Source: a virus
Taxonomy: Duplodnaviria; Caudoviricetes
Length of the DNA: 52,749 nt
Reading direction: 5' to 3' (one strand)
Virus record (IMG/VR): IMGVR_UViG_3300044617_001342
Span: 1-52,749 of that record
Shown: positions 1-39,010 of the stretch, one piece after another
Layout of the letters: each line of letters opens with the position of its first letter
Position numbering within the stretch: the first letter of the stretch is position 1
The notes under the pieces: model-generated
What the model saw: only the letters and a program-made list of their open reading frames with translations
Told to the model about the DNA's origin: nothing
Databases searched by the model: none
Translations under genes and position numbers: made by a program

Positions 1-29
1 GTGCGGTATCTGGTGGTTCGGGTTCAGGC

Positions 30-1367
30 TTGATTTTAAACATCACTACAGGAAAAGTAGGAAACGTAGTTACAGCAGTAAATCACGATTTCAGGAATGG
101 TGAATTTGTTACTATTGCTGGTTGTACCGCAGAAACAACATTTAATAATACATTTGCAGTAATAGGAACTAATTCTCAAACCGCATTTAGCATTGCTGCA
201 AATTCTGCCGCAACCCAAAGCCCAACTGCGGCTAGCTCACTCACAACGACTTTGATTGTAGATGCTTCTCAAAACTGGAATACCAACGAGCATGTCGGAA
301 GAGTGGTATTCGTACAAACACAGGGAACGTCTCCAACTAACGCAGGTGCCAGACGTATTACCGCAAATACTGCAACAACATTAACTTTGTCGTCTGTAAT
401 TTCAGTGATGGCAAACGGACAATCTCGTTATGTGATTCAAGAAGCACGACCATTCGGTGCGATGTGCATAGATAAAGTTGCAGAACGCTCACCAAACGGA
501 TGGACAACTTCCGGTACAGCAACTACGCTAGTTGACACAACCAAAAACTGGAGAATAAATCAATATCAAAACTGCCGTGTTAGAATTGTTTCAGGAACGG
601 GAGAAGGAAATGATGTTGTAATCACTTCCAATACTGCAACGACTCTAACCGTGGCTTCTTGGAACGTTGCAACACCAGATGCAACTTCAAAGTATCAGAT
701 TATGGACTCGTATGGAATAGTAACTACTGGTGCAGGAACAACAACTGTTACTGATGCAAATAAAAATTTCCCAACAAACTATCTGGCAGGAAAAAGACTC
801 CGTTATATTGCGGGAACCGCTTCTTCTTCTGCTGGTACAGCAACAGTAGAAGTTTCAGTAACATCAAATACTGCAACAGTAATTACTGTACCTGCATTGA
901 CTTCCAACGCCACAGATACATTCTATGCAATTTATGAAATTCCAGCAAGAAGCACAGGTATTAATATAAAATGGCTGTATGGTGTTTCCGATGTAGATAA
1001 GAAAGGAAGATGGTTGATTTCTCCCCGTGGCGGTGGTTCAAATATCTTTGATATATTTGACATCCCAACATCAACTTGGGAACTCACGCCATTCGTTACA
1101 CCTATAACAACTACTTTGACTACGGGTTCCATGTATGCATATGACGGAGTTGATTCGTATTACTTCACCAAAGACGCTACAAACCGTATTTATCAACTAG
1201 ATCTTTCTAAGTTCCAAGTAGAAACAGCAACATCTATTCCATATGCTCATAGCACAGCAACCCTCAGCAATAAATTTGAAATTGTAAAAACTGTTGATGG
1301 TTTAACATATCTGTACGTCATGCGTCATACTGGTCAGGAAATGTGGCGTACTCTTAAGTTCTGGTAA
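30..1367 (+). CDS. Virion structural / tail-associated protein (probably 5'-truncated by window edge)
   Basis: Thr/Asn/Gly-rich beta-strand repeats (xITSNTATTLT x3, DxxKNW), directly upstream of tail-fibre gene; frame is open towards the window start. Confidence 0.6.
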   Translation: MILNITTGKVGNVVTAVNHDFRNGEFVTIAGCTAETTFNNTFAVIGTNSQTAFSIAANSAATQSPTAASSLTTTLIVDASQNWNTNEHVGRVVFVQTQGTSPTNAGARRITANTATTLTLSSVISVMANGQSRYVIQEARPFGAMCIDKVAERSPNGWTTSGTATTLVDTTKNWRINQYQNCRVRIVSGTGEGNDVVITSNTATTLTVASWNVATPDATSKYQIMDSYGIVTTGAGTTTVTDANKNFPTNYLAGKRLRYIAGTASSSAGTATVEVSVTSNTATVITVPALTSNATDTFYAIYEIPARSTGINIKWLYGVSDVDKKGRWLISPRGGGSNIFDIFDIPTSTWELTPFVTPITTTLTTGSMYAYDGVDSYYFTKDATNRIYQLDLSKFQVETATSIPYAHSTATLSNKFEIVKTVDGLTYLYVMRHTGQEMWRTLKFW

Positions 1368-1395
1368 GTATGCAATATAACATAAATATTAACAC

Positions 1396-4167
1396 ATGGC
1401 ACTAGATTTTCCTACATCACCAACACTTAATGAAATTTACACATTTGGTGGTCGTTCATGGCAATGGAACGGTACCGCATGGGATGTTTATAGTCCTGCA
1501 GGCGGTCTGACGCAATATGTTTCAAAATTAAATGGTCTTTGTGGATCAATTAATATTGCTGCAGGATCTTCTATATCTGTAACCCCAACAGGTAATACTC
1601 TAACAATTGCCTATACTGGTGGAGGTGGTGGTGGAGCTACTGGTGCTACTGGTGCTACGGGAGCCACTGGAGCAGGTGGAGCTTTAGGATACTGGGGTAG
1701 TTTCTGGTCAACTCAAGACCAAGCAGCAGCAGGTACAACACTTGCTTATGCAATTACTTACAATAATACAGATCCAAATTCTAATGGTGTAAGTATTGTT
1801 TCCAATTCAAGAATTACATTCAGTAATTCCGGTGTATATAACATTCAGTTTTCAGCACAGGCAGACAGAATTTCTGGTTCTGGTACTGATACGATAGAAA
1901 TATGGTTCCGTAAAAATGGATCAGATGTTCCAGATAGCAACAGTATCGTAACTGTTTCTGGTAGTGCAGCAGCAGCCAAAACAATTGCTGCGTGGAACTA
2001 TATGTTTAATATTACTGCTAATGATTATGTTGAATTAATGTGGAGAACATCTGATACTCGTTTAGAATTTATCGCAGATCCAGCAGGAACAAACCCAACT
2101 AGACCGGCAATTCCTTCTGTAATTCTTTCAGCAAATCAGGTTATGTATACTCAGCTTGGTCCCACGGGTCCCGCAGGTCCAACTGGTCCACAAGGAAATA
2201 CAGGAAATACAGGAGCCACTGGTTCTCAAGGTATTCAGGGAAATACAGGAAACACTGGTGCAACTGGTCCACAGGGAAACACTGGTGCTACTGGTGCTAC
2301 TGGTTCTCAAGGAAACACTGGTGCTACTGGTGCCACTGGTCCTGTTGGTCCTTATGTAATTTCAATTCGTGGTCTTACTGGCGCTGTTGGTTTGACCAAC
2401 GGTTCTGGAATAGGTCTATCAGTTTCTGGAAACACTCTGACTGTTTCGAATACTGGGGTACTGAGTATTGACGGTAGTACTGGGGCTATTACAAATGTTG
2501 CTCGTACAAATGTAGATAATAATTTTAGTGCATCACAAACTACAGTAAGTACAATAACTGCAAATTCTACGTCTTTACAGCCTACTTCAATATTTCATTA
2601 TTATGATTCTAGTACAAATTCACAGTTGTGGCAATCTGCTGATGCAAATTCAACAATAACATTTCCAAATTATACCACAACTCTTGCAGGACTTGCAGGA
2701 ACTCAAACCTTTACAGGTACAAATACTTTTAGTACTTTAACAAACTTTACTTCAGGAATCAGTGCAGCAGGAGGAACCTTCAGCGCACTCACAAGATTCA
2801 ATTCAGGTATTAGTTCAGCAGGAGGAACTTTCACCGCACTCACAAGATTTACTGCGGGAATTAGTGCTTCTGGAGCAACCTTTAGCGGCAACATCTCTGC
2901 ACCAAATATTGTTAACAGTTTCAACGGAATCACAGGTGCAGTCACAGGTGTAGCATCTATTCGTGGTCTTACTGGTACTGTTGGAATCACCAATGGCAAT
3001 GGAATTGGTCTGAGTGTATCTGGTCAGACTATGACCTTCAGTAATACTGGAGTGTTGAGTATTGATGGGAGTACTGGTGCTATTACAAATGTTGCTCGTA
3101 CAAATGTAGATAATAATTTTAGTTCTGCTCAAACCATAGAAGCACCAGGTGCATATCTTGAAATAATTAATAGTGCTACCTCTACCGCCTTTACTCTTAC
3201 TCCTGGTTTGGGTATTGCAGTTAGTGATTCAATTAATTCTCCTCAAACATTACAGTTTAATCAGACATTTACTAATACTACAGTTACTCTTCCTAATTAT
3301 ACTACAACTTTAGCAGGTCTTTCTGGTAATCAAACCTTCACCGCACTCAATACCTTTAATGCAGGTATTAGTGCTGCTGGTGGTGTTACTCTTTCAGGAA
3401 CTTTGCGGGGAACAACTGCAAACTTCACAGGTCTTGTATCCTCTACTGTTGGGTTCTCTGGTGCAGCAACCAATCTTACAGGAAATGCAACTGGATTGAC
3501 TGCGGGAACTGCTTCTAGAGTTCAAATCGCAGAAGGAGCAGGATCAAATTACTATTTGGCTCTTGTTGGAGGTACGGGAAACACAGGAATATTCGTAGAC
3601 ACATCCGTCCCAAGATGGAACTACAATGCATCAACAGGTGCGCTGACAACAACCACGGGATATGTAGAGGCTGCAAATTTATATGCAACTACTGCAATCT
3701 ATGCAAATACTTTGGAAGGGTTTGACGGCACCTCACAACTAAACATTCGCGCTCCATACTTTGATGGAACATATCAGCCAATATATATTGGTGATACTAA
3801 TGGTTCGGGGGACGGAACATTAATTACAGTAGACGATGCCGCAAGTAAGATTGAATTCGCCGCAGGTAATATTGACGCTTACGGAAGCCTGAATGTAAAA
3901 AATAGTGGCTATTTGACATTCTTTGATGCAGATGCATCAAACTATGTTGCATTCAGAGGAGCAACGGCTCTTGCTGCTAATACTACTTGGACACTCCCGT
4001 CTGCTGATGGCTCTGCAAACCAAGTCCTGACCACAAACGGTTCAGGAACTTTGAGTTGGAGTACTCCAAGCGGTAGTGGAATAACACAATATGTTTCTAC
4101 TTTAAATGGTTTAACAGGTGCTGTTCAATATATCGTAGACTTCAAGAGAGGGTGGTTCTTATCATGA
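1396..4167 (+). CDS. Tail fibre protein with collagen-like segment
   Basis: [25 protein letters not shown]-terminus, G-X-Y repeats ~2158-2350, repeated SxNGLTGAV motifs, C-terminal [24 protein letters not shown]; CATAAATA at 1381-1388. Confidence 0.8.
2362..3135 (+). repeat. Internal ~60-aa module duplication in tail fibre plus 3-4 short GISAAGGTF repeats
   Basis: [35 protein letters not shown] occurs at ~2362-2529 and ~2956-3123, with an identical ~45-nt stretch. Confidence 0.9.
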
Positions 4168-4955
4168 GAAGATGGCGACTCAATTCAGGATACTGCGGCA
4201 ACACAGACCAACGCCGTACAAAGGCAGGAACTATTCCTATTCTGAAGCACTACATTGAAAGAGATTTAGGGACGTTCTTTACCTCAAGTGATGAGTATTA
4301 CAGTTTTGTTACTCTTTTGCTGCATTGCGATGGAGCCAACAACAGCACCACAATTACTGATAGTAGTTCATCACAAGTAACCGTAACTCCTCAAGGTGAT
4401 GCAAAAATCAGCACCGCACAAAGTAAGTTTGGCGGATCGTCTTTGCTGCTAGATGGCACAGGAGATTTTGGTCTAATCGATACTCAAATGACCAACTTTG
4501 AATATTCTGGTGATTTTACAATTGAGGGTTGGTGGCGGTTTAATGCGAACAATGTGGGCTATCAGGGTCTTATTGGTTCAGCAGCAGGTGGAGATCAAAC
4601 AGGTTGGGCTTTGATTGCCGAAACCAATAACACATTGAATTTTTATGGATCTAGCACAACTGCTTGGAATACTGTTGTATCTAGTACTCAGGTTCCCACA
4701 ATAAACACTTGGCATCATATTGCTGTTTGTCGTTCAGGAAGCACAGTTCGTTTATTTTACAACGGCACACAAATTGGGTCATCAACATCGTCCAATTCCA
4801 TTCGTTCTGGAACCTCATTACGAGTCGGTGGCTATCAATTTTTTCCGGGTGGTGCGAGAAGTTTCAATGGTTATATTGACGAACTTCGGATTACCAAAGG
4901 ATTTGCCAGATACACAGCCAACTTTACGCCGCCAACACAAGCACCAACACCATAA
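4164..4955 (+). CDS. LamG / concanavalin A-like lectin domain tail protein
   Basis: [47 protein letters not shown] motifs; ATG 4164 overlaps upstream TGA (ATGA). Confidence 0.8.
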
Positions 4956-4976
4956 ATATCATAGAAGGAACATCGT

Positions 4977-5297
4977 ATGCCAGACATATACACAAATTAC
5001 GCAACTTCAGTCGGTGTCACGGCAGCCACCACAATTTATGCGGGGATCACAGGAACCGCAATAGTGAATGCTATTCATGTTGCCAACAGTAACACCACAA
5101 TAGCCAATAGTGTATCTGTTCAGTTGTTCAAGGGAGCAACAGGTTACTACATTGTTCGTGCAGCAGCAGTTCCAATTCAATCAACATACCAAGCACTTGA
5201 TGCACCAATTCCACTCGTAACAGGAGACACTCTCAAAGTTACAGCAGGATTCACTGCGGGACTTGATATCATCGTATCGGTATTGGAGTCAACCTAA
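4977..5297 (+). CDS. Small structural/hypothetical protein
   Basis: CATAAATA at 4951 plus AAGGA; beta-rich, PIPLVTGDTLKVTA motif typical of phage tail-region proteins. Confidence 0.6.
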   Translation: MPDIYTNYATSVGVTAATTIYAGITGTAIVNAIHVANSNTTIANSVSVQLFKGATGYYIVRAAAVPIQSTYQALDAPIPLVTGDTLKVTAGFTAGLDIIVSVLEST

Positions 5298-5599
5298 TGG
5301 CACTACAGCAAATCATACAGCACCCAACGGGAACCTATTCGCAGTATTGGAAGATTCGTACTCTGAATCTGAATCATACCGCCAAGACAGGTACAGTTAT
5401 TTTGGATGGATATGTTTCTGAACAAGCAAGAATAGACAATAAGATTCCTCTTGATGAAAGAACCATCAATGTGTTTGATTTTGATGTGTGGTTTGCACCA
5501 GATGTCATTGATGCTGAGGGAATGAATCAGGTAAAATCTGCATATACCTTTACAAAGTCCATTCCGAATGGTGAGTTTGTTGGATCGACAGACGTTTAA
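5297..5599 (+). CDS. Hypothetical protein (tail-fibre assembly-like)
   Basis: TAATG coupling; QYWKI..AYTFTKSIPNGEF resembles small tail-region proteins. Confidence 0.5.
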   Translation: MALQQIIQHPTGTYSQYWKIRTLNLNHTAKTGTVILDGYVSEQARIDNKIPLDERTINVFDFDVWFAPDVIDAEGMNQVKSAYTFTKSIPNGEFVGSTDV

Positions 5600-5614
5600 A
5601 ATCTATATTTTTAA

Positions 5615-5642
5615 TTGACATATGAATATTATATGATATAAT
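5615..5642 (+). promoter_or_regulatory. sigma70-like promoter TTGACA-16-TATAAT (extended -10 TG), leaderless
   Basis: Read directly; ATG 6 nt after the -10 box. Confidence 0.8.
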
Positions 5643-5648
5643 ACTTAT

Positions 5649-6170
5649 ATGCTTTTAGAATATTTTAAAGATAATCCGTACATCCCAGATCCAAATTTTC
5701 AGACCAAGATGGCAGCATGTTTTGACCTTGCCGCATACATTCCAAAGAATGAAAAAGTCAAAGTTTACTCTGGCAAAGAATGTATGGATGTCTCCCCAAT
5801 ATATGACTCCGAAAAGGAAGACTCCTATGTCTGCCTAATGCCCGGAGAAAGGGCTCTAATTCGCACAGGCTTGACTTTTAAGCTGCCCGATGGATATTCC
5901 CTCCGTCTACACCCCCGGTCAGGGATGGCTCTTAAATACGGTCTTACGCTGACAAATTGCGAAGGCGTGGTTGACGAAGATTATACCTACGAAACCAAAC
6001 TTATTATGATGAATACCAATAGCAAGGATTCTATCAAAATTTATAATAAGGACCGTGTAGCACAGGCAGAACTAGTTCCCTATGAGCAGCCTTTACTTGC
6101 TGAAATTCAATTTCGTCCGACTCTAAAGTCAGACAGAATCGGTGGGTTCGGTAGTACTGGTGTCAGATGA
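5649..6170 (+). CDS. dut: Trimeric dUTPase
   Basis: AACFDL, PRSGMALK, GVVDEDY, DRVAQ, RIGGFGSTG motifs I-V. Confidence 0.95.
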   Translation: MLLEYFKDNPYIPDPNFQTKMAACFDLAAYIPKNEKVKVYSGKECMDVSPIYDSEKEDSYVCLMPGERALIRTGLTFKLPDGYSLRLHPRSGMALKYGLTLTNCEGVVDEDYTYETKLIMMNTNSKDSIKIYNKDRVAQAELVPYEQPLLAEIQFRPTLKSDRIGGFGSTGVR

Positions 6171-6395
6171 TTTCTTTGGAAATTTAATTGATTTAAATTC
6201 TTTCCAAGCAAACCATATCACAACAGCCAAGATAACCACATACCAAAAACTCCATTCGGAGGCTTGGTTGGGAGATCCAAAGAATGGTTCTTTAAGAACG
6301 CTGTGAATTGGATTTCCCTTTTTGTCTAAAGGGGAAATAATCTGAGGAGTTGTGCATGATACTAGAAATAGAACCATTGGAATCAAATATTTCAT
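6129..6395 (-). CDS. Lipoprotein with C-terminal TM helix (u-spanin-like topology)
   Basis: MKYLIPMVLFLVS-C lipobox; WYVVILAVVIWFAW TM followed by basic tail. Confidence 0.5.
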   Translation of the reverse strand: MKYLIPMVLFLVSCTTPQIISPLDKKGNPIHSVLKEPFFGSPNQASEWSFWYVVILAVVIWFAWKEFKSIKFPKKSSDTSTTEPTDSV

Positions 6396-6826
6396 GATTT
6401 ATTTCCTCCTGCGGCTGTGCCAAAGTAGAATCCAACCACAGCCAAAAGAACTTGGCGATTTTCTTCAGCAAACAAGTATCCAGGAATTTCTACAAAGTAT
6501 TTCCGTGTTGTTTCTGGAACCAATCCAAAGAAACTTTCAGGTTGTTTTTGAGTAAACTCGGCAAAGGTTGAAATTCCAAAAAATGGTAAGACAAATGGAG
6601 CAGCAACTACGGCAAATAGACAGGCCAATACGATCAGTTGTCTTACTCCCTTTCCAAGATCAATTGGAACTCTTTGAGCAGCCTTATCTTGGTTGTCTGT
6701 GGTTTGTTTATTGGCCTCAATTGCCATCTTAAACATGTCTTTTTGATCTTGGGCTCTTTGTGCCCAATAACGAAACAGGAATCCCGTGACTCCTCCACCT
6801 AGCAAAGATATTAATTCTGTTGGCAT
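6392..6826 (-). CDS. Membrane protein, holin-like
   Basis: Hydrophobic N-terminus, central TM, C-terminal AVVGFYFG motif seen in phage holin-like proteins. Confidence 0.55.
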   Translation of the reverse strand: MPTELISLLGGGVTGFLFRYWAQRAQDQKDMFKMAIEANKQTTDNQDKAAQRVPIDLGKGVRQLIVLACLFAVVAAPFVLPFFGISTFAEFTQKQPESFFGLVPETTRKYFVEIPGYLFAEENRQVLLAVVGFYFGTAAGGNKS

Positions 6827-6832
6827 ATTACC

Positions 6833-7426
6833 TCAATTCTTTTGATGTGAAAGTTGTAGTTCAATCGAATTACGAATAGATTCAAAAATATCCATAAAAT
6901 TCTTTTCTTGAATTAGTATTGGTTCAAAATCTTTGTGCCATTGCATCAACACAAATCCAACATTTGTTCCCTTGCTTTTCAAAGGTAAGCAAGAAAAATG
7001 AGAAATGTTTTCATCATCAAAAAAATGTCTTGCATGGCTGTCTGTTGGCAAAGACTCAATTGAATGAATGACTGCACTGTTTTGTGTGACTTTATTCAAT
7101 AAAGGAACAAATAAAGAACATTGAGTTCCTTTGAGTTTTCCTACTTGTGAAACATATCCTTTATGGGAAGATTCGTGAGTTATTGAAAACTTTAACATAG
7201 AGATGCCATCCATGAAATATTCTCCATTATGCAGTTGCAAAACGGTGGATCTCATGCTGCGGCCTTCAAGACGAAGTTCTGTAAGTAGTTCGTGGATTTC
7301 TGTATGGATTGTATTAAAACTGTAATTTGTTTTATCTTTATTCCAAAATTTTTTAATTCCGTATCCGAGTCCCGCCAATCCGGCTACTCCATACGCTGAA
7401 AGTTCAAATATTTTAGAAAAATCCAT
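6833..7426 (-). CDS. N-terminal TM plus GAF-like domain protein (T4 holin T-like architecture)
   Basis: TM AYGVAGLAGLGYGI; LQLHNG, FSITHE, SCLPLK..VGFVLMQW GAF-like pattern; late promoter upstream. Confidence 0.5.
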   Translation of the reverse strand: MDFSKIFELSAYGVAGLAGLGYGIKKFWNKDKTNYSFNTIHTEIHELLTELRLEGRSMRSTVLQLHNGEYFMDGISMLKFSITHESSHKGYVSQVGKLKGTQCSLFVPLLNKVTQNSAVIHSIESLPTDSHARHFFDDENISHFSCLPLKSKGTNVGFVLMQWHKDFEPILIQEKNFMDIFESIRNSIELQLSHQKN

Positions 7427-7446
7427 TGATAAACTCCATGTCTTAA

Positions 7447-7483
7447 TATTTATATTTGACAGGGTGTTAATATATGATAGAAT
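7447..7483. promoter_or_regulatory. Divergent pair: late TATAAATA (-, 7447-7454) and TTGACA-16-TAGAAT (+, 7456-7483)
   Basis: Read directly. Confidence 0.8.
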
Positions 7484-7491
7484 GTTAATCT

Positions 7492-7815
7492 ATGATGACC
7501 AGAGAAGAATTATTTAAATTACACGAAGAAATTTGCAAAGAAGCCATCGAACTCATGCGTAAAAAGAACAATGACTACGCATCTGGCGCAGATCCTTTCA
7601 TGAATTTCCGAAGAGCGGAATATTTAGGTTTTGCAACGGCAGAACTTGGTGTTCTCATTCGCATGACTGACAAGATGTCAAGAATCTCCACTTATTTGAA
7701 TAAGGGAGAACTTTCATTGCAGAATGAGAGTGTTTATGATGCAATTGTTGACCTAATTAATTACAGTGTTATACTTGCAGGGCTTCTCAAAGATAGAGAA
7801 CCCAAGAAAGACTAA
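7492..7815 (+). CDS. DUF1599 / nucleotide-modification-associated domain protein
   Basis: KKNNDY..DPFMNF..GVLIRMTDKMSRI..ESVYDAIVDLINYSVI pattern. Confidence 0.7.
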   Translation: MMTREELFKLHEEICKEAIELMRKKNNDYASGADPFMNFRRAEYLGFATAELGVLIRMTDKMSRISTYLNKGELSLQNESVYDAIVDLINYSVILAGLLKDREPKKD

Positions 7816-10322
7816 TGAAATTTTATACTGCCTGTGCTTTGAAGGGGAACAAGGTTCTTGTTCGTGGTTATGACAATGGTGTTCGGTTTACCGACACCAT
7901 TGCTTATAAGCCATCCCTATACATTAAATCTGATAGCCAATCCAAGTACAGGACTCTCAACAATGTCAACGTCAAACGTATGAAGTTTGACACGTTGTAT
8001 GATTGCCGTCAATTCCTAGACCAATACAGAGACCTAGATGATTGCCCGATTTATGGAAACACTGATTTCGTCACTCAATATCTCATGGAGACTTATCCGA
8101 CTGAGGTGGAATACGATCTTTCCAAGATCAAAGTAGCCTACCTAGACTTGGAATGTGAGACTGAGGGAGGCTTCCCAGACCTAGACAATCCCAATGAACG
8201 AATCAATCTTGTGACTATTCGTATCTGCGGTGTCAACTATGTTCTTACTATGAAGCCACTTACCTTGCCAGACTGCAAGGTTGTTATGGTTACATCAGAG
8301 AAGGAACTGATCAAGAAAATCTTTGATATCCTTGCTAAGGAAGACATAGATATTCTTACCGGATGGAACATCAAACTCTTCGATATGCCCTATATAATAG
8401 GTAGGGCAAAGCTTTTCTTTGAGGAAAAAGAGATTCAGAGTTGGATGCCGTTTGGTTTGATGAAGATGCGTGAGACTAATATTGGTGGCAAGGATTACAA
8501 ACTCTTTGAGTTTCCCGGCTACACGATTCTAGACTACATGGATCTTTACAAGAAGTTCAGGCTTGTTCCCAGAGAAAGTTACGCTCTTAACTTTATTGCA
8601 AAGGCGGAACTAAATGCTCAAAAACTGGATTACAGCGAGTATGGATCTTTGCGGGAGTTCTATACAAAAGATTTTCAAAAGTTTGCGGAGTATAACGTAC
8701 AAGATGTCGTGCTGGTTGAACAGCTTGACAATAAGCTCCGACTGATTGATTTGGCGATCTCCATTGCCTATGAGGCAAAGATCACATTTGATACGGTCTT
8801 CTTTGCCACTCGGATCTGGGAGACCATTTGCTGTGACTATCTTGCAAAGCAATACATTGTTCCACCTCTAAAGACCAAGTATGCCAAGGATGAGCAGTTT
8901 GTTGGTGCATATGTCAAGGAAGTTGTACCGGGACTCTACAAGAACATAGTCAGTTTTGACGCAACTAGCCTGTATCCATCCATCATCATGTCATGGAACA
9001 TTTCTCCTGAAACTTGCATTCACAAAGATTCATCACTCAATGCTGATGATTTCCTTCGCAGCAAGCGTAAGGAGATTCCAGATATTATTGAAGATGCTGA
9101 AAGCCAGAATGCATGTGTTACATGCAATGGTTCTTTCTTCACCCGTAAAGTCAAGGGCTTTATTCCAATACTAATTGAGACCACTTTCAATCAGCGTAAG
9201 GAAGCCAAGAACAAGATGATGGAACTGAAAAAGGAATATGAGGAAACCAAGAACGCCGATCTTCTTCCACGTATCTCTGCTCTAGATATTCGTCAGACCG
9301 TAAAGAAAATTTTGGCAAACAGCCTGTATGGTTGCCTTGGTAATCCTGCATTTACATATTCATCTCCTGAACTGGCTACGGCTGTTACCGTGACTGGACA
9401 GGTGATTATTCGTACTGCTGAGAATTCCATGAATGACTATATCAACAAGGTAATGAAGAATGAAGAACCCAAAGATTACGTTATTGCAGTCGATACTGAT
9501 TCGGTCTATTTGAATCTTGATGAAGTTATCACAAAGGTTTCCAGCAAGACTCCGATTGAAGATATCACTTCTTTTGTAGATGACATTTGTGAAAACAATA
9601 TTCAGAAACAACTAAACAAGGTCATGAAAGATCTTACTGGTATGTTGGGCTGCAAAAATAATAAGATTTCTTTCAAGCGTGAAGCCATTGCTTCTGCCGG
9701 AATGTTTATTGCCAAGAAGCGGTATGCATTGCTTGTGCACGACAATGAAGGAATTAGATATGCCGAACCTCAATTGAAGATCATGGGACTGGAGACTGCA
9801 CGGAGCAGCACTCCTGCAGTAGTCCGCGATAAATTGAAGGATTGCATCATGATCATCCTGACCAAGACCCCCGAGGAGTTACGCGACTTTGTGAATATAT
9901 TCTCTGATGAATTTATGAAGATGCCTATAGAAGATGTCGCTGCTCCTCGGGGTGTCAAGGGTATTAGTAAATATACTGATTCCTCTGACATCTATAAGTC
10001 TGGTACTCCAATTGCCACCAAGGCTGCATTGTTACACAATGCATACACAAAGAAGATAAAGCTTGACAAGGAACTTCCACCCATCAAGGAAAACGATAAG
10101 ATCAAGTTTGTATTTGTTCGTGTTCCAAATCCATATGGCATGGGTGGCAGAGATGCCGTGATGGGATTCATTGGCAAGCCTCCTCCACAATTTAATCTTG
10201 AAAAGTATATTGATCGAAAGAAACAATTTGAAAAAACTTTTGGTGAGCCCCTAGACAATATTTTGCAGGCCATCAAGTGGTCGATAAATGAACAAGTCAC
10301 ACTTGAATCCTTCTTTGGTTGA
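7815..10322 (+). CDS. gp43: Family B DNA polymerase (T4 gp43-like)
   Basis: ExoI DLECE, GWNIKLFD, SFDATSLYPSII, KILANSLYG, DTDS, KKRY, GLETARSSTP; C-terminal clamp-binding TLESFF. Confidence 0.97.
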   Translation: MKFYTACALKGNKVLVRGYDNGVRFTDTIAYKPSLYIKSDSQSKYRTLNNVNVKRMKFDTLYDCRQFLDQYRDLDDCPIYGNTDFVTQYLMETYPTEVEYDLSKIKVAYLDLECETEGGFPDLDNPNERINLVTIRICGVNYVLTMKPLTLPDCKVVMVTSEKELIKKIFDILAKEDIDILTGWNIKLFDMPYIIGRAKLFFEEKEIQSWMPFGLMKMRETNIGGKDYKLFEFPGYTILDYMDLYKKFRLVPRESYALNFIAKAELNAQKLDYSEYGSLREFYTKDFQKFAEYNVQDVVLVEQLDNKLRLIDLAISIAYEAKITFDTVFFATRIWETICCDYLAKQYIVPPLKTKYAKDEQFVGAYVKEVVPGLYKNIVSFDATSLYPSIIMSWNISPETCIHKDSSLNADDFLRSKRKEIPDIIEDAESQNACVTCNGSFFTRKVKGFIPILIETTFNQRKEAKNKMMELKKEYEETKNADLLPRISALDIRQTVKKILANSLYGCLGNPAFTYSSPELATAVTVTGQVIIRTAENSMNDYINKVMKNEEPKDYVIAVDTDSVYLNLDEVITKVSSKTPIEDITSFVDDICENNIQKQLNKVMKDLTGMLGCKNNKISFKREAIASAGMFIAKKRYALLVHDNEGIRYAEPQLKIMGLETARSSTPAVVRDKLKDCIMIILTKTPEELRDFVNIFSDEFMKMPIEDVAAPRGVKGISKYTDSSDIYKSGTPIATKAALLHNAYTKKIKLDKELPPIKENDKIKFVFVRVPNPYGMGGRDAVMGFIGKPPPQFNLEKYIDRKKQFEKTFGEPLDNILQAIKWSINEQVTLESFFG

Positions 10323-32984: not shown

Positions 32985-34649
32985 ATGCCATCTTCATCAG
33001 CCTATATTCCTTCTTTCTCCATATCAAATTTTGCACAATCTGTTTCTGCTCCATATACTTCATTTGGAGCATATGCCTCAGGTGTAATTGATGCCAGTGG
33101 TAATTTATTAAAGCCCGAAAGTAGCATAGATCCTTATGAATATTTTGTAATAAAGTTAAAGAAAATATTTGAAGAGTTGCCAACAAACTACACTAAAGCT
33201 AGATTGAATAGCTACATGTCTGCATTCCAGATCTTTAATGAAGAAGCTGAGTCTTTTGGAATTCCTGAAAATCATTTTTTAATGTTTGTTGAAGGTTATC
33301 TTCAAGGTGGTCTGTTGTTGAACGAAGATATGGGAGCAGGAATGGCAACAGGTGGCTCTCCCGGAAGCATTGGAACCGCACAGGTTGTTCCAAACACAGG
33401 AACTGTAATGGGATATGACAAGCCAATGGATCTGCCATTGTTTAGAAGATCTCCTGTTGAAATGTTTGATGTAGATAATAACGAATTCCAAAATTTTAAA
33501 AATGCTAAAGCATGGAAGCATATTCCAGATAGCCCTACAAAAAAATATCTGAAGCGTTTTCAGCAAAGAAATCCAAACGGCAAAATGGCTATTAGAACTA
33601 AGAAGCCTGATACAGATGAGCATGATCTCTATTGGATCACATATCCTGCCAAGAATTTTATGGAAGAGTATGGACTGGATGTTATGGATTTTTTATTTGA
33701 AGAAACAGAAGCATTAACAAAAGCTTATAATGACGCCGATGATCGTTCTGGAGAACCATCGGTAGCAACATTGACAGATGCAGAAGAATTGGAATCCATT
33801 GGAAAAAAGACAATGGTTTCTTTGACTGCCAGAACTAAAAAAGAAACTGCTCAAAAAGAAATAGATAATGGTTCTGCTTTGTTTGGAAACACTAAAATAG
33901 TTGGTAGCAATGTTCAAAAAGAACAAGCTTTGTTGGATGCGATAACAAAAAAATTGCATGCCGCTGGATATAAATTAAAAACCGGAGTTAAATCAAAAGA
34001 AGAACTTGGAATTGGAGAGTTTGGTATTTTTGGAGAAGGTGGTAGAGGAGTACACTCCGATGTCCATGTCGGTATGGAACACCCTGAGAAAAAAGGTACA
34101 GTGCATCATATAGGTATTGAATCTGGATATAATAGAAAAATGCAGAAACAATATTTAATTCCCAGAGGAACAAGAGTTTCCATGACCAAATTTTTTAGTA
34201 ACATTGGCGTGCAACCTACTTCTTCAAACATATCTACCCGTGAAGGGGAAATTGATGTTGGTGAAGAATTGATTAAACGTGGAACTGTTTCTGGATCAAG
34301 AAAAAGATATGGTCTATGGCCAACATTGGAAAGATTATTTCCACGTACAATAGAGAGAGTAAAAGAAAAATTTAGGCAACCAGCATATCAAGCAATTCGA
34401 ACAAAATCAGATGATTTGAGTATTATAGGTCATGAAGGTAGGATTGCAACAGTTCACCACAGAGGTGGAGATTTAGTTCAAAGAAAACTTTCTCAACAAT
34501 TGATGGATCAAATGGGTTTGCACCACACACATGAATTAGATGAACTTACTTTTTCAAGATCACCATTTTATGGTGGTTCTAAGAAAAAGAAAGGTATTGC
34601 AAAAAAGAAGAAAAAAAAAGGTATTGCAAAAAAGAACAAAAAGAAATAA
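32985..34649 (+). CDS. Hypothetical late protein with poly-Lys tail
   Basis: ACTAAATA 32970-32977; GVIDASGNLLK..KLKKI N-terminal module; LNE/LFEE sites. Confidence 0.65.
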   Translation: MPSSSAYIPSFSISNFAQSVSAPYTSFGAYASGVIDASGNLLKPESSIDPYEYFVIKLKKIFEELPTNYTKARLNSYMSAFQIFNEEAESFGIPENHFLMFVEGYLQGGLLLNEDMGAGMATGGSPGSIGTAQVVPNTGTVMGYDKPMDLPLFRRSPVEMFDVDNNEFQNFKNAKAWKHIPDSPTKKYLKRFQQRNPNGKMAIRTKKPDTDEHDLYWITYPAKNFMEEYGLDVMDFLFEETEALTKAYNDADDRSGEPSVATLTDAEELESIGKKTMVSLTARTKKETAQKEIDNGSALFGNTKIVGSNVQKEQALLDAITKKLHAAGYKLKTGVKSKEELGIGEFGIFGEGGRGVHSDVHVGMEHPEKKGTVHHIGIESGYNRKMQKQYLIPRGTRVSMTKFFSNIGVQPTSSNISTREGEIDVGEELIKRGTVSGSRKRYGLWPTLERLFPRTIERVKEKFRQPAYQAIRTKSDDLSIIGHEGRIATVHHRGGDLVQRKLSQQLMDQMGLHHTHELDELTFSRSPFYGGSKKKKGIAKKKKKKGIAKKNKKK

Positions 34650-34672
34650 AAAACCCCCTTTCGGGGGTTTTC
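34648..34672. terminator. Bidirectional intrinsic terminator
   Basis: AAAAACCCCC-TTTC-GGGGGTTTT between convergent genes. Confidence 0.85.
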
Positions 34673-34888
34673 TCAATCCTGAATAAAGTTCTTACAACAC
34701 TTCGGTTTAGTGCAACCAGAGTTTGCTCTGGCTTCATTAATGATCTTGGTGTGAGCATCTTCCCAACCAGCAAGCCATTCCTGCCAATAAACTGAATTAG
34801 ATTCAAAAATATTGGAAGCCTTATCACCCCCATTCATTCTAGTGTCATAGCCTTTCTTATAGGCTGAACCTGGAACATAATCTGTCAT
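34673..34888 (-). CDS. Ribosome modulation factor (RMF)-like protein
   Basis: AYKKGY..G..N.F....QEWLAGWEDA matches the RMF pattern A..RGY.AG..CPY..QWLGGW. Confidence 0.55.
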   Translation of the reverse strand: MTDYVPGSAYKKGYDTRMNGGDKASNIFESNSVYWQEWLAGWEDAHTKIINEARANSGCTKPKCCKNFIQD

Positions 34889-35316
34889 TGTTTATCCTTT
34901 GGATCAATAGGAACAATTACGATTTGACTGATAAGCTTGTCAAGAGCCTTAACGTGAGCACGTTGCTCAGTAATGTTTAGATAACCACGAATCTCAATAA
35001 GCTTCTCGTAATCTTCACGAGAGAAAGTAGTCGTGGTCTTGGCAGGCTGTTGCTTCTTCATAGGACGACGATTGTTCATGGGATTCTTGGGGCGAGGGTT
35101 CTTGCTCCATTCCTTCATGATGTCATCAATGTTAAGATACTCTTTCATGCTCTCGGTGAAGTCTTGCCCACTGTTGATGTCATTCCACATCTTGCGGAAC
35201 TCTGGGCCCATGTTGCCATAGAAGAAGAACCCATTAGGGTTGTTGTTTGGATTGTTGGCGTCATCATCGTCGCCGTTCTGCCAGTTCTTGAAATCATTAT
35301 AATCAGAATTATTCAT
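34885..35316 (-). CDS. Hypothetical protein
   Basis: AAGGA upstream, ATGA coupling downstream. Confidence 0.65.
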   Translation of the reverse strand: MNNSDYNDFKNWQNGDDDDANNPNNNPNGFFFYGNMGPEFRKMWNDINSGQDFTESMKEYLNIDDIMKEWSKNPRPKNPMNNRRPMKKQQPAKTTTTFSREDYEKLIEIRGYLNITEQRAHVKALDKLISQIVIVPIDPKDKQ

Positions 35317-35324
35317 ATCTTTCC

Positions 35325-35624
35325 TTAGTTAGTGTCAAAAATTTGTTCGTAAACTACCTTGCCCCGATTGTCCGTAACGGATACATATCGAACGTGACGG
35401 CTCATTGCATCACTGATATTTAGGGGATCCTTTGGACCGAATGCCATGTGCTTGATCCAAGCAGGGCACCCACCAAGGGAAATACGAACTTCGGCACCAG
35501 TTGCATCAGTACCATAAAAATCAAATGCAGCCTTCTCACCATCATAATAGGTGAAGAAGCAATCAATAGAATCATACTTCTTGCGAACATCCGCAAGAGT
35601 CATTTCTGTAGCGGTCTTAGCCAT
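35325..35624 (-). CDS. Hypothetical protein
   Basis: Packed operon ORF. Confidence 0.65.
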   Translation of the reverse strand: MAKTATEMTLADVRKKYDSIDCFFTYYDGEKAAFDFYGTDATGAEVRISLGGCPAWIKHMAFGPKDPLNISDAMSRHVRYVSVTDNRGKVVYEQIFDTN

Positions 35625-35790
35625 TAGGCAATCTCACTTGCTTGATTAAAATAGGTAGTTGGCCATTCGCGTCAAGCGCACGAAGAGTACCAACTTTAGC
35701 CTCCATGAGGCTCTTGTGACGGTTATTACGAAGACGGGTTTTGCGCTTTCTATGCGCCCGAGCAGTTACACGTTGTTTTGAATTAGGCAT
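35617..35790 (-). CDS. 57-aa basic protein resembling N-terminus of ribosomal protein bS20 (not in ORF track)
   Basis: MPNSKQRVTARAHRKRKTRLRNNRHKSLMEAKVGTLRALDANGQLPILIKQVRLPNG; leaderless after TTGACA-16-TATACT (35824-35797). Confidence 0.55.
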   Translation of the reverse strand: MPNSKQRVTARAHRKRKTRLRNNRHKSLMEAKVGTLRALDANGQLPILIKQVRLPNG

Positions 35791-35796
35791 ATGAAT

Positions 35797-35824
35797 AGTA
35801 TACTCCTTATTTATGGTCTGTCAA
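35797..35824 (-). promoter_or_regulatory. sigma70-like promoter TTGACA-16-TATACT with nested CATAAATA
   Basis: Read directly; ATG 6 nt after -10. Confidence 0.75.
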
Positions 35825-35828
35825 ATAA

Positions 35829-35854
35829 CAAAACCCCCTTTGAAGGGGGTTTTG
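35829..35854 (-). terminator. Terminator hairpin after tmRNA
   Basis: CAAAACCCCCT-TTGA-AGGGGGTTTTG. Confidence 0.8.
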
Positions 35855-36170
35855 GGTCGATTCAGATGCGGGAGACCAAACCCCACTGCTTTAAGCAGCC
35901 ATTGCCATATAGTTGGCAATTATTTTTGCAACTGTTTATTTACGACACTTGTTACCCGTGTCGGGTATCTCCTTCTTCATTACTTTGCGCCAATCGATTC
36001 CTTTCGACCCCGGTGACCCGAAGCCTAGGACTTCGGGAAATGCCCCGCTGCTACGAGGACTTAATTCGCCGTTTTCAGAGGATTGCAGATTCTCTGACTT
36101 AGGCTAATGGAGTCGGGGGGATTCGAACCCCCGTCTTGTACGCATTTCAATCCAATATCAACAATACCAT
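35855..36170 (-). ncRNA. ssrA: Circularly permuted (two-piece) tmRNA
   Basis: Acceptor piece ends GACGGGGGTTCGAATCCCCCCGACTCCA (36108); coding piece starts GGGGTCGAAAGGAATCGA (36011); G3-U70 pair; pk1; tag ANYMAMAA* at 35917-35891; outer ends approximate. Confidence 0.9.
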
Positions 36171-36180
36171 TTTTATTTAG

Positions 36181-36263
36181 TGCGAGCGGAAGGATTCGAA
36201 CCTTCGTAGACATAAGCCAGCAGATTTACAGTCTGCCCTCGTTGACCGCTTGAGTACACTCGC
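36181..36263 (-). tRNA. trnY: tRNA-Tyr(GTA), CCA not encoded
   Basis: GCGAGTG/CGCTCGC acceptor, GCAGA-CTGTAAA-TCTGC, long variable arm. Confidence 0.95.
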
Positions 36264-36413
36264 TAAAGTCGGGCATTGAATCCTTTTTCCAGCCCTGATC
36301 AAGGTCTGGGAAGTATAGTACTAGCCCTGCGCGTTCTTCTAAGGTATCCCGCGCCCCACCTCTGATTACTGCTAGGGTATCAGTTATCCCTATACAGTTT
36401 TATAGATTGTCAG

Positions 36414-36539
36414 TTATTTAGTCTTCTTTTTTGATTTCTTCTTTTTCTTGAAAATTGCATCAAAATTCTTACCGTACTGTTCCATGTTCACGGGACGGGG
36501 AGAACTTCCTTTTCCAGCACCATGTGATCCGTAATCCAT
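36414..36539 (-). CDS. 41-aa basic protein (not in ORF track)
   Basis: MDYGSHGAGKGSSPRPVNMEQYGKNFDAIFKKKKKSKKKTK; leaderless after TTGACT-16-TATACT (36573-36546). Confidence 0.7.
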   Translation of the reverse strand: MDYGSHGAGKGSSPRPVNMEQYGKNFDAIFKKKKKSKKKTK

Positions 36540-36545
36540 GCCAGC

Positions 36546-36582
36546 AGTATATACCATATATAACGGAAGTCAAATCTAAATA
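36546..36582. promoter_or_regulatory. Divergent pair: TTGACT-16-TATACT (-) and late TCTAAATA (+)
   Basis: Read directly. Confidence 0.75.
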
Positions 36583-36587
36583 TTGAT

Positions 36588-37433
36588 ATGAAGAACAATA
36601 AAGGTAGATACAACTGGATTCATTCTCTAAACGAGGCTGGCCTTCAAGCCCAACAAAATGGCTTTAATATGCTTAATGAAGCTACAGCCAAAAAAATTAC
36701 TGATCCTGCTAAAATAGCCCAATTAATGGGTCAAATGCCTCAACCGACTGTAATTGATCCCGAATCACCAAGCGCTCATCCTGCCGATGTTATGGATGCA
36801 ATTAGCCGTCTTGGTGCTCATTCTGCCGGAACAATTAAACTGGCCGATGGTGATGTTGGTGCTTATGTAGATCTTGAAAGAATGAAACGGGCTGAAAGAC
36901 TTGCTCAATTGGCACGAAATACAGGTCCAGTTGACGCCAAACCAGCTGGAAATGCCAATGATGTTGCTGCAGACGGACAAGATGGTGTTATGGCTGATCC
37001 AGAAGATTCAGATTTCGAAGATGAAATCGCTCAGGCTGCAGACATCCGTGCAGTTGCACTTGCAAATAGAGCAAGACGCGAACAAGAAGAATATCCTGAA
37101 GAACCCGAAGATGATTATCGTTATACGGCTCCAACTGCAAATTGGCAGACAGTAAGAGAATCAATTAATTCTAAGATTTCAAGAATGATGAATGAGGCTA
37201 AAAAAGCTGTTCGTGGACGTATAGTCACTGGAGCCGATTCTGAAATTCCTACTAGAAGTCCAAATAGTTTAGATGCTCCAAGAGGAATATTTAGAGGTAC
37301 AGAAACTCCCAGCGAAAAGCTTGGAAAGATTTTAGAAATTGTTCGTGATGGTCCAGAAAAGCATGGTGAAGAAAAACATAGTTGGGCTTCTAATGCTTTA
37401 GAAGTAATGCAAAAACAATTGCGTAAGGGTTAA
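36588..37433 (+). CDS. Hypothetical late protein (probable internal head protein)
   Basis: Late promoter; repeated LNE sites. Confidence 0.65.
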   Translation: MKNNKGRYNWIHSLNEAGLQAQQNGFNMLNEATAKKITDPAKIAQLMGQMPQPTVIDPESPSAHPADVMDAISRLGAHSAGTIKLADGDVGAYVDLERMKRAERLAQLARNTGPVDAKPAGNANDVAADGQDGVMADPEDSDFEDEIAQAADIRAVALANRARREQEEYPEEPEDDYRYTAPTANWQTVRESINSKISRMMNEAKKAVRGRIVTGADSEIPTRSPNSLDAPRGIFRGTETPSEKLGKILEIVRDGPEKHGEEKHSWASNALEVMQKQLRKG

Positions 37434-37636
37434 AGGTCGGGATACCCGATCTCTCGGGACCATTCCCATTCTTTCCATAACAATTTAGCAAATTCGTCGT
37501 CAGGATCATGACGACGAATTTCTATTTCTGCGATACCTTGTGCTGAGATGGCAGCATCCATTTCCCACGATAGCCAAAACCATTCACCCTTTTTAAGAAG
37601 GTTGTTGGTAATCAGACATCGAATGTCTTTAGGCAT
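37430..37636 (-). CDS. Hypothetical protein
   Basis: Trp-rich 68-aa ORF following 37638-37883. Confidence 0.55.
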   Translation of the reverse strand: MPKDIRCLITNNLLKKGEWFWLSWEMDAAISAQGIAEIEIRRHDPDDEFAKLLWKEWEWSREIGYPDL

Positions 37637-37637
37637 A

Positions 37638-37883
37638 TTAATTTATATAGAATGCAGTAAGACCAGCTGGTAATGCACTTGGGATAGCATATACTTGCAT
37701 AGGTAAAATAAATGGACTGCTATTAACTGTAATAGCTGTATTAAAAGTTCCACCGGCACCAGTAACCAAACTTAAAGTAATGCCAGTTCCTGCTGACAAC
37801 GCACCAGAGATTAAAAGACCTTTATGCTTAGGAATTCTGGAACCGACTGTAATTGGAGTTGCTTGAAAGTATTTGTCGTACAT
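37638..37883 (-). CDS. Small beta-rich structural protein
   Basis: TCTAAATA (-) 37892-37899; ILPMQVY motif. Confidence 0.55.
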   Translation of the reverse strand: MYDKYFQATPITVGSRIPKHKGLLISGALSAGTGITLSLVTGAGGTFNTAITVNSSPFILPMQVYAIPSALPAGLTAFYIN

Positions 37884-37901
37884 GTTACAAATATTTAGAC
37901 T

Positions 37902-38180
37902 TTATTTTATAGACCAAAATTGATCCAATTCTTCTTTGGTTTTGGCATAATTGATCATCCAAATGCAATGATATCTTCCATAAGGAATGGATTTACAGAC
38001 ACCCACATGGTACCCAGAACCTTCATTATATTGAGAGGCCACTACTTTATATGAAGTTTTGGTTTCTACTTCATCTATAAAATTTTGAACATATTCAGGA
38101 TAGATCTTTTTGGGGATCACCACTGGCTTTTTATTATATTTGCGCTTGGGCTGAGTAGAAGTTTTACGGTGTCTGGGCAT
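37902..38180 (-). CDS. Hypothetical protein
   Basis: ORF immediately after tRNA-Gly. Confidence 0.55.
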   Translation of the reverse strand: MPRHRKTSTQPKRKYNKKPVVIPKKIYPEYVQNFIDEVETKTSYKVVASQYNEGSGYHVGVCKSIPYGRYHCIWMINYAKTKEELDQFWSIK

Positions 38181-38183
38181 AAA

Positions 38184-38255
38184 TGCGGCTGGAGGGAATC
38201 GAACCCTCGTGACGGGTTTGGAAAACCCGCGTAATGGCCGTTATACGACAGCCGC
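38184..38255 (-). tRNA. trnG: tRNA-Gly(TCC), CCA not encoded
   Basis: GCGGCTG/CAGCCGC acceptor, CGGGT-TTTCCAA-ACCCG. Confidence 0.93.
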
Positions 38256-38287
38256 AGATTAAATTAGTATAATACATAAATATTAGT

Positions 38288-38992
38288 ATGCAAGAACTAA
38301 ATGAAGGAAATATTTTTGATATTCAAGATGTTTTTGGTGCAAATTTAAATGCATCACAAATGGGTATTAAAAAACAAAAGAATGCTGTCAAATCTCAATT
38401 ATTTGATTATTTGAAAAGAAATAAAGTTCAAAATCCAGAACAAGTTATTAAACAAACTTTTGGTGATTTGGTGGAAAAAGCGGGTGGTGGTATGGGTGTA
38501 GGTGAGGCTGGTTTTGGTCCACCAGAAAACGTTGGTGATGCGTTGCCATTCTTAGATCCTTCAAATAAAACAGGTGCGGAAGTCGTAGTGGTTGCAAATA
38601 AAAATGGAAAAGCATATACATCTCCTTCTTCTGGATTTGGTATGGGTTTTGCCTTGGATCCAATGTTGGTTCCCAATGTAAGTCAATTTGTTAATTTTCA
38701 TGCCGATAAAGGTGATCAAGGAGCTGTAAGTGATTCTTTTGAACAAGAAAGATTAGAAGATACAGATACTCCAGAAGAATTGTCACATATTACATGGCAA
38801 AAAATGAATAATGCTGTTGCGAATTATGTTTATAAAAATTTAAAACAGACTCTTCAACAGTATCATGCTTACTTGCCAGATGAAATGTATCAGAATCAAT
38901 CTGGGACTCCCGCAATAAATTCACATCATTATGATCCATATTCTAGACAAGTATATATGCCTAAGAAATTTAATAGCGAACCTCAAATATAA
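38288..38992 (+). CDS. Hypothetical late protein
   Basis: CATAAATA 38275-38282; MQELNE start. Confidence 0.6.
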   Translation: MQELNEGNIFDIQDVFGANLNASQMGIKKQKNAVKSQLFDYLKRNKVQNPEQVIKQTFGDLVEKAGGGMGVGEAGFGPPENVGDALPFLDPSNKTGAEVVVVANKNGKAYTSPSSGFGMGFALDPMLVPNVSQFVNFHADKGDQGAVSDSFEQERLEDTDTPEELSHITWQKMNNAVANYVYKNLKQTLQQYHAYLPDEMYQNQSGTPAINSHHYDPYSRQVYMPKKFNSEPQI

Positions 38993-39010
38993 ATAAATTA
39001 AAAGGACACC

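Follow-up and report, generated by a model that had tools for sequence, protein, structure and literature searches.

A conserved four-gene operon ending in an RMF-like protein, beside a variable tRNA and tmRNA cassette, in an uncultured and apparently T4-like phage

The window analysed here is a stretch of 52,749 bases, the whole of IMG/VR record IMGVR_UViG_3300044617_001342, which is estimated to be about 31% complete. All elements of the locus under study lie on its minus strand, from position 36573 down to 34648, in the order promoter, gene of a small basic peptide (p47), structured RNA of about 150 nt, tRNA-Tyr, two-piece tmRNA, terminator, promoter, four open reading frames (ORFs) and terminator. 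The four ORFs encode the basic peptide p57, the orphan proteins p99 and p143 and a 71-aa protein resembling ribosome modulation factor (RMF). They form a strictly linked, conserved unit, and the RNA genes in front of them are variable cargo. The first-pass annotation had listed the genes and the spacer among these elements on one strand within 34673–36573, and everything it listed is present there, the genes being recovered with ARAGORN, Rfam and ORF calls. It had also taken them for a single coordinated module acting on host ribosomes, and the relatives of the locus speak against this.

The window contains genes for a family-B DNA polymerase (PolB), a DnaB-like helicase, a RecA/UvsX-like protein and a class II ribonucleotide reductase. 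PolB matched 2,663 phage records and showed at most 41.6% identity to the PolB of T4-like cyanophages. This gene content and this distance argue for a distant, uncultured T4-like phage as the source of the window. Cultured relatives were sought with tblastn of p99 and the RMF-like protein against 50,697 phage records, which gave no match, and megablast of window positions 33000–39000 returned a single match of 44 nt. A distant blastn search with the RNA region matched 87 records; among the 25 matches listed, the tRNA-Tyr part only was covered.

Linkage and expression signals of the operon

Relatives of the locus were assembled in two sets, which share many contigs. Set A comprised 44 viral loci picked by the RMF-like protein (99–44% identity), in which the genes were sought by tblastn. 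Set B was picked by the p99 profile to avoid circularity, and 80 of 106 relatives were kept. In set A, p143 was found in 44/44 loci, p99 in 41/44 and p57 in 37/44; every miss corresponded to a contig end, and the gene order was constant. In set B, p143, the RMF-like protein and p57 were each present in 80/80 loci and always colinear. A p47 homologue was located within 3 kb upstream of the operon in 70 of the 76 set B loci with room for it. The dN/dS values against relatives were 0.01–0.07 for three of the operon ORFs and 0.28–0.51 for p57. The four-ORF operon is a strictly linked conserved unit, and the synteny check proposed in the first-pass annotation came out in favour of linkage as far as the protein genes are concerned.

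The four genes are closely packed. The p57 and p99 genes overlap by 8 nt (ATGGCTAA), an 8-nt gap separates p99 from p143, and the p143 gene overlaps that of the RMF-like protein by 4 nt (ATGA). Shine-Dalgarno cores were present upstream of the RMF-like gene in 51/51 distinct sequences and upstream of p143 in 38/41; for p57, a core was found in only 13/41, far upstream. The overlapping stop and start predict that p99 is translationally coupled to p57.

In both halves of the locus the −10 box ends 6 nt before an ATG (36539 for p47 and 35790 for p57), so transcription is expected to start on the A of the ATG and a leaderless mRNA is predicted. The same geometry is seen in each of the 26 distinct p57 upstream regions listed for relatives. 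Over the window and the 44 loci of set A, the ATG stands at offset 6 in 43 of 66 distinct promoter-like sites (other offsets, 0–8), many of these 43 being homologous copies and not independent; in the window alone, the same offset occurs in four of seven strict sites. The arrangement also occurs at 5615–5642 (plus strand), before a dUTPase/dCTP-deaminase-like ORF (5649–6170), and at 44436–44409 (minus strand), where the ATG at 44402 opens a 54-aa hydrophobic membrane peptide followed by tRNA-Glu. The T4-type late promoter motif TATAAATA was not found within 34000–37500, and a literature search turned up no paper on leaderless early genes in T4-like aquatic phages. The arrangement resembles the promoter-early stem-loop (PeSL) cassettes that Arbiol and colleagues reportedly described in T4-type phages in 2010, in that a stem-loop terminator stands directly before an early promoter and small ORFs (35854–35797) and the gene content varies at this point. 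Unlike in the PeSL cassettes, the promoter here abuts the ATG of the predicted leaderless message, and in many relatives the tail codons of p47 (K-L-D-K = ...CTTGACAAA...) contain the −35 and −10 boxes of the p57 operon.

The peptide p57 (pI 12.0) has an invariant N-terminus, MPNSKQR, and an invariant C-terminus, RLPNG, and is probably a nucleic-acid-binding basic peptide. Its earlier label "bS20-like" was abandoned: hhalign against E. coli bS20 gave a probability of 0.11% and an E-value of 0.52 with five aligned columns, no Pfam match was obtained at E ≤ 1, and the best PDB match of the p57 profile was bL35 (E = 0.35). Searches for a PHROG or NCBIfam family were also negative. In the one distant relative compared (L027), the synonymous divergence (pS) of p57 is below that of p99 (0.37 vs. 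0.72). The higher dN/dS and lower pS of p57 may reflect an RNA-level constraint at the 5′ end of a leaderless message.

Conservation within the operon is highest in p99, with 47 invariant columns out of 99 and a dN/dS of 0.05–0.07. Its family comprises 49 clusters; full-length members are at least 65% identical, and none carries a functional name from its source. An exhaustive profile search over 1.84 billion representatives gave nine matches at E ≤ 0.001. Long multi-stretch matches (P0166, P0169–P0172) showed scattered, incoherent Pfam matches and were taken as repeat or composition noise. Assignment of p99 as a WD40 protein was rejected, as the best PDB profile match (E = 0.0077) consisted of weak single stretches and the predicted fold disagrees.

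The N-terminal part of p143 is acidic and rich in Asn, its C-terminal block, Y.KLIEIRGYL.I.EQ.AHVKALDK, is invariant, and its dN/dS is 0.05. Its family comprises 223 clusters, and 119 of 120 rows among the matches listed are without a Pfam domain. A relation to TFIIE-beta was considered and dismissed, since both the best PDB profile match (E = 0.031) and the Pfam Tfa2 E-tether match (E = 0.032) are below significance. The ESM Atlas contained no usable match for p99 or p143. Both are real genes, clade-restricted orphans under strong purifying selection. They had been proposed as two unknown ORFs that might be new ribosome effectors (34885–35316 and 35325–35624); their reality as conserved genes was confirmed, and the effector role is backed by no test.

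Table 1. Features of the locus, listed in the direction of transcription
Feature	Position in the window	Strand	Basis or remark
Promoter-like site, sigma-70 type, TTGACT-N16-TATACT	36546–36573	−	Among the two best promoter-like sites of the locus
p47, small basic protein	36414–36539 (ORF open from 36557)	−	ORF call
Conserved structured RNA, about 150 nt, directly 5′ of tRNA-Tyr	36264–36417	−	Folding and covariance model
tRNA-Tyr (anticodon GTA)	36180–36263	−	ARAGORN; tRNA model 36181–36263, 55.6 bits
Two-piece (permuted) tmRNA	35891–36168 (Rfam); 35800–36198 (ARAGORN)	−	RF04321 and ARAGORN
Intrinsic-terminator hairpin closing the RNA-gene unit	35829–35854	−	11 pairs, then T run
Promoter-like site, sigma-70 type, TTGACA-N16-TATACT	35797–35824	−	11/12 matches
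p57, 57 aa (formerly "bS20-like")	35617–35790	−	ORF call
p99, 99 aa, orphan alpha/beta protein	35325–35624	−	ORF call
p143, 143 aa, orphan	34885–35316	−	ORF call
RMF-like protein, 71 aa	34673–34888	−	ORF call
Intrinsic-terminator hairpin and T run closing the operon	34648–34673	−	Between the operon and a convergent 554-aa ORF

The convergent 554-aa ORF (32985–34649, plus strand) ends in a long Lys-rich C-terminal tail (...KKKKGIAKKKKKKGIAKKNKKK), and its stop adjoins the terminator hairpin of the operon. Its PHROG matches were weak and of unknown function.

The RMF-like protein

RMF, which is strongly basic, contacts 16S rRNA close to the anti-Shine-Dalgarno region; it binds 30S/70S particles and promotes the formation of 100S dimers. 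It is the product of a stand-alone stationary-phase gene of Gammaproteobacteria. The AlphaFold model of the 71-aa phage protein (pLDDT 79.8) features helices at residues 8–18, 25–29 and 33–57, which make up a helix-loop-helix core (residues 8–57), and a low-confidence tail with the conserved elements C-x4-CC and FIQD. The combination of structure prediction and Foldseek had been suggested as a check in the first-pass annotation, and it ranked solved RMFs first: among 350,542 PDB chains, the top three hits were the RMFs 2jrm, 9iot_y and 6h4n_v, with TM-scores per target length of 0.52–0.60 and E-values of 1.1–1.5. VIA-align, which is independent of Foldseek, placed ribosome-bound RMF (4v8g_AV) at rank 1 of 48,161 chains, with a Z-score of 5.5, a root-mean-square deviation (rmsd) of 3.1 and 51 of 53 residues aligned.

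The amino acid sequence points in the same direction. Residues 9–47 matched Pfam family PF04957 with 22.7 bits (E = 1e-4; cut-off, 27.9 bits), and the NCBIfam RMF equivalog NF011162 was matched with 27.4 bits (E = 2.2e-6; cut-off, 40 bits). Among 17 family members compared with PF04957, seven matched at E ≤ 0.01, the best at 3.9e-6. The family of the RMF-like protein comprises 115 clusters, in which six rows have a precomputed PF04957 match and eight are named RMF by one source. With a hidden Markov model (HMM) of enterobacterial RMF, nine of 64 family members scored at least 10 bits compared with four of 12,800 shuffled sequences, and 22 of 64 scored at least 5 bits compared with 59 of 12,800; the window protein itself reached only 6.9 bits.

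Like RMF (PF04957; NF011162; 2JRM, 4V8G, 6H4N), the phage protein is a small helix-loop-helix protein, and the two have in common the pattern (K/R)G(Y/F)..(G/R)..G ... W..GW..A, at residues 9–47 of the phage protein and 12–49 of RMF. Unlike RMF, it carries an additional tail of 14–16 residues with a cysteine cluster and the terminal FIQD, is near-neutral and is encoded last in a four-gene phage operon of predicted early type. Within the family, the cysteine cluster (C-x3/4-CC) was found in 43 of 64 members and the terminal F[IL]Q[DE] in 60 of 64.

A number of results weigh against a relation to RMF. Both scores of the window protein fall short of the curated cut-offs, hhalign against RMF profiles gave probabilities of only 19–31% (best E = 5e-4, at 31%), and a search of PDB sequences with the family profile turned up no RMF at E ≤ 10. 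NCBIfam gave no match for the two most distant family members tested. On the structural side, the Foldseek E-values exceed 1, the VIA-align Z-score is within 1 of those of unrelated helical chains, and helix-loop-helix is a common arrangement. The charge differs as well, with a pI of 6.5 for the phage protein versus 10.9 for E. coli RMF and a median pI of 5.1 for the first 57 residues across the family.

Taken together, the fold and the above-chance sequence likeness suggest a protein built on the RMF scaffold, probably as a diverged relative of RMF. By its profile scores it is not a member of the curated RMF family. The designation "RMF-like" given in the first-pass annotation can thus be kept for fold and sequence likeness, and it fails on the curated cut-offs and on basic charge. 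The helical core is acidic, and a copy of the 16S rRNA binding of RMF is therefore unlikely. The tail, with its cysteine cluster, basic residues and terminal FIQD, is the likely docking part.

A literature search found no described phage RMF. Small ribosome-associated factors in phages have a precedent in HPF (hibernation promotion factor of the ribosome) and the ribosomal proteins bS21 and bL12 (Mizuno et al. 2019, PMC6375957). Those proteins are clear homologues that score above family thresholds, unlike the RMF-like protein here. In the text of that article, supplements apart, "ribosome modulation factor" and "bS20" each have 0 occurrences.

The RNA genes upstream of the operon

The likely start of p47 is the second ATG (36539), which gives a peptide of 41 aa; reading from 36557 would give 47 aa. 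The peptide has the core GAGKGSSPRPV...YGKNFDAIF, a Lys-rich tail and a pI of 10.2, and no Pfam, PHROG or NCBIfam family was found for it. The family follows the pattern AGKG(D/S)x(Y/P)R(P)VN...Y(C/G)(K/E)N(W/F)(D/E)xIF, then a Lys-rich tail, an example being L018:3977–4132.

The sequence between p47 and tRNA-Tyr, noted in the first-pass annotation as a structured spacer, proved to be a conserved structured RNA. It folds with a minimum free energy (MFE) of −43.1 kcal/mol (z = −2.08) and has no Rfam match at E ≤ 1. A covariance model (R1) built from eight copies was run on 63 sources and detected 15 copies. Each of them adjoins, on the 5′ side, tRNA-Tyr or a tRNA-Thr/tRNA-Tyr pair; three of them belong to cassettes sited elsewhere, on the other strand. 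Besides the one in the window, copies lie at L027:714–865, L035:685–836 and L078:262–414. In the R1 alignment, which was fitted to the model itself, 94% of cells are paired, compared with 28–52% for slid partners. Compensatory changes occur at five pairs in two hairpins, and the long closing helix is without covariation. Doubly changed cells numbered 17 compared with 5.3 in shuffles, and none of 500 shuffles was as high. The element is a real conserved RNA that travels with the tRNA cassette.

The tmRNA matched RF04321 (tmRNA_permuted) over model positions 1–213 of 213 with 82.3 bits, against a gathering score of 47. Among the tmRNA families of the tRNA clan, the beta-proteobacterial model was best, with 56 bits against a gathering score of 84. 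ARAGORN called a permuted tmRNA with the tag ANYMAMAA* and the tag reading frame at 35917–35891. The acceptor stem GGGGUCG/CGACUCC contains G3:U70, and CCA is not encoded. This alanine identity pair is present in all 24 phage tmRNA copies parsed, which also show one compensatory change at pair 5. The tags of relatives are ANQLAMAA, ANELAMAA, ANEMAMAA, ANQMAMAA and longer forms. No SmpB (PF01668) was found in this approximately 31% complete record. The tmRNA looks functional. It presumably pairs with host SmpB and AlaRS and would release ribosomes that stall while the phage infects its host, a role already put forward for other aquatic phages.

The presence of the RNA genes varies among relatives. 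In set A, 11 of 44 loci have a tmRNA, in one of them on the opposite strand and 4 kb off; in set B, a tmRNA was found in 20 of 80 loci and tRNA-Tyr in 34 of 80. Of the 31 cases with a tmRNA, 30 have it immediately upstream of the operon. In relatives without RNA genes, p47 abuts p57, with the p57 promoter inside the Lys-rich tail codons of p47, and other relatives have at this position a tRNA, a tRNA and tmRNA, or these with extra ORFs. Such ORFs, inserted between tRNA-Tyr and tmRNA, encode proteins of 133 aa (L004:3215–3616), 197 aa (L007:3096–3689) and 153 aa (L015:3230–3691); the first is a PD-(D/E)XK endonuclease (Pfam E = 4.3e-12) and the other two are orphans. A maximum-likelihood tree from 68 distinct rows of concatenated operon proteins implies nine changes of tmRNA presence, of which well-supported branches force at least six, with some of the "absent" rows being truncated contigs. 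The RNA genes are the variable cargo of an insertion hot spot for mobile genes and a separate transcription unit. Given this variability, the protein operon is to be regarded as the conserved unit and the RNA genes as optional cargo, and the claim of one linked module that includes them, each present in a minority of set B loci and closed off by their own terminator, did not survive.

The tmRNA/tRNA cassette is of an already known kind. Two-piece tmRNAs have been described in aquatic T4-like phages, namely Methylophilales phage Melnitz and pelagimyophages, where a permuted ssrA was reported in 17 of 47 related contigs (PMC9004378). Both there and here, the permuted ssrA lies by tRNAs and downstream of an early-type promoter and is found only in some relatives. 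Unlike the published examples, as described there, the present locus has no glutamine riboswitch detectable with Rfam, encodes a short tag ending in AMAA and has the approximately 150-nt structured RNA in front of tRNA-Tyr.

An exact 25-nt tmRNA pattern occurred at four loci in bacterial genomes. Three lie inside ordinary tRNA genes, namely tRNA-Ala on a tRNA-rich contig of a metagenome-assembled genome (MAG) and tRNA-Ala and tRNA-Glu on two archaeal MAG contigs; the fourth is a two-piece tmRNA on a tRNA-rich, phage-like MAG contig. A 9.5-kb contig (L210, positions 1–8000) from a MAG labelled Bacteroidota contains 16 tRNA genes, a two-piece tmRNA (AAPMAMAA*) and a p47-like peptide, and has the look of phage sequence that was binned with a bacterial MAG.

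Interpretation of the locus

We consider it fairly likely that the locus is made up of two early transcription units placed in tandem in an uncultured T4-like phage, and that it is not one co-inherited module. This explanation builds on the strict linkage, the purifying selection and the promoter geometry observed among relatives, and on the RMF-type fold of the last protein. Unit 1 (36573–35829) would be an accessory RNA cassette consisting of the promoter, the 41-aa peptide, the 150-nt RNA, tRNA-Tyr, the tmRNA and the terminator, with its RNA genes lodged at a recombination hot spot that follows the peptide gene and precedes the next promoter. Unit 2 (35824–34648) would be the conserved core, with transcription starting on the p57 ATG, p99 translated by way of the overlapping stop and start, and p143 and the RMF-like protein translated from their own Shine-Dalgarno sites. 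We infer that the operon serves as an early host-takeover unit. An action of the RMF-fold protein on ribosomes or the translation apparatus is possible, if doubtful.

Some points count against the two-unit explanation. The flanks of the loci span 3–5 kb only, so a tmRNA elsewhere in the genome would escape, and some of the loci scored as lacking a tmRNA end short upstream. The promoters are predictions, as are the early timing and the leaderless starts.

The explanation of the first-pass annotation, in which tRNA-Tyr, tmRNA, a bS20 mimic, two effectors and an RMF homologue together rescue, remodel or hibernate host ribosomes, appears very unlikely. It would account for the position of all parts on one strand within 1.9 kb, for the almost constant placement of the tmRNA, when present, directly upstream of the operon (30/31 cases) and for the RMF-type fold of the last protein. 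However, 60 of 80 loci have no tmRNA beside the operon and 46 of 80 have no tRNA-Tyr there, a terminator and a separate promoter stand between the RNA genes and the operon, and unrelated ORFs insert at the same spot; furthermore, a likeness to bS20 is not detectable and the RMF-like core is acidic. Still less credit can be given to the notion that the small ORFs are chance open frames and the RMF match is noise. The ORFs are indeed short and the RMF scores lie below curated thresholds, but three ORFs have dN/dS values of 0.01–0.07, linkage is 80/80, and public data contain 49 clusters of the p99 family, 115 of the RMF-like family and 223 of the p143 family. RMF came first with both structure aligners, independently of each other, and the shuffle control likewise contradicts noise. 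The chance-ORF explanation is already refuted by conservation.

The function of the operon can be viewed in several ways. The RMF-type helix-loop-helix may have been reused off the ribosome, with the four small early proteins forming or feeding a host-takeover or anti-defence device directed, for example, at RNA polymerase, nucleases or a defence system; p57 would then bind nucleic acid and the FIQD tail would dock on a host protein. We regard this tentatively, as a minority possibility. Early genes of T4-type phages typically encode small host-takeover proteins, and the predicted promoter here is of the early type. The neutral to acidic core, the conserved tail absent from RMF (F[IL]Q[DE] in 60/64 and C-x3/4-CC in 43/64 members) and the lack of a family for p99 and p143 also fit such reuse. 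There is, however, no positive pointer to any non-ribosomal target, PADLOC gave no match for any of the five locus proteins, and RMF is the only family signal of the operon. It is highly improbable that p99 is a cut-down module similar to NFACT-N, the tRNA- and ribosome-binding domain of RqcH-type rescue factors, so that the operon would handle stalled ribosomes in parallel with tmRNA. The suggestion comes from VIA-align on 48,161 chains, where 3doa_A (Z = 6.0) and 6pon_A (Z = 5.5), which we take to be members of the RqcH/NFACT family, occupied ranks 1 and 2, and 7ope_0 (RqcH on the 50S subunit; Z = 4.2) rank 11; these matches, over model residues 1–99, have rmsd values of 5.3–6.7 Å and Z-scores below the 7–8 typical of unrelated best hits. 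Moreover, the best Foldseek E-value for p99 was 0.24, no Pfam match was found, and only one of five models was confident (alpha/beta, pLDDT 78.4; the other four, 48–60). The most far-reaching proposal, which we rate as unlikely, is that the conserved leaderless operon is a translation-takeover kit. Early in infection the RMF-fold protein would dock on host ribosomes, possibly together with p57 and a p99 of NFACT-N-like type, and shift them from Shine-Dalgarno-led host messages to leaderless early phage mRNAs, or protect them against hibernation by the host or a defence aimed at ribosomes.

HPF, bS21 and tmRNA have been known in phages, and the interesting part of the present locus is an RMF-fold protein fixed in a four-gene operon of predicted early type. 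The neighbouring tmRNA and tRNA, previously over-read as partners of this operon, are optional cargo of a hot spot. The operon spans a large uncultured clade of apparently T4-like phages and is seen in many metagenomes (115 clusters of the RMF-like protein and 223 of p143). If the RMF-like protein acts on ribosomes, it would offer a small, testable handle on the reprogramming of translation by phages, a question sharpened by the predicted leaderless early mRNAs. If it does not, the RMF scaffold would have been reused for another purpose. Should the translation-takeover kit prove true, it would mark the first case of a virus using the RMF scaffold.

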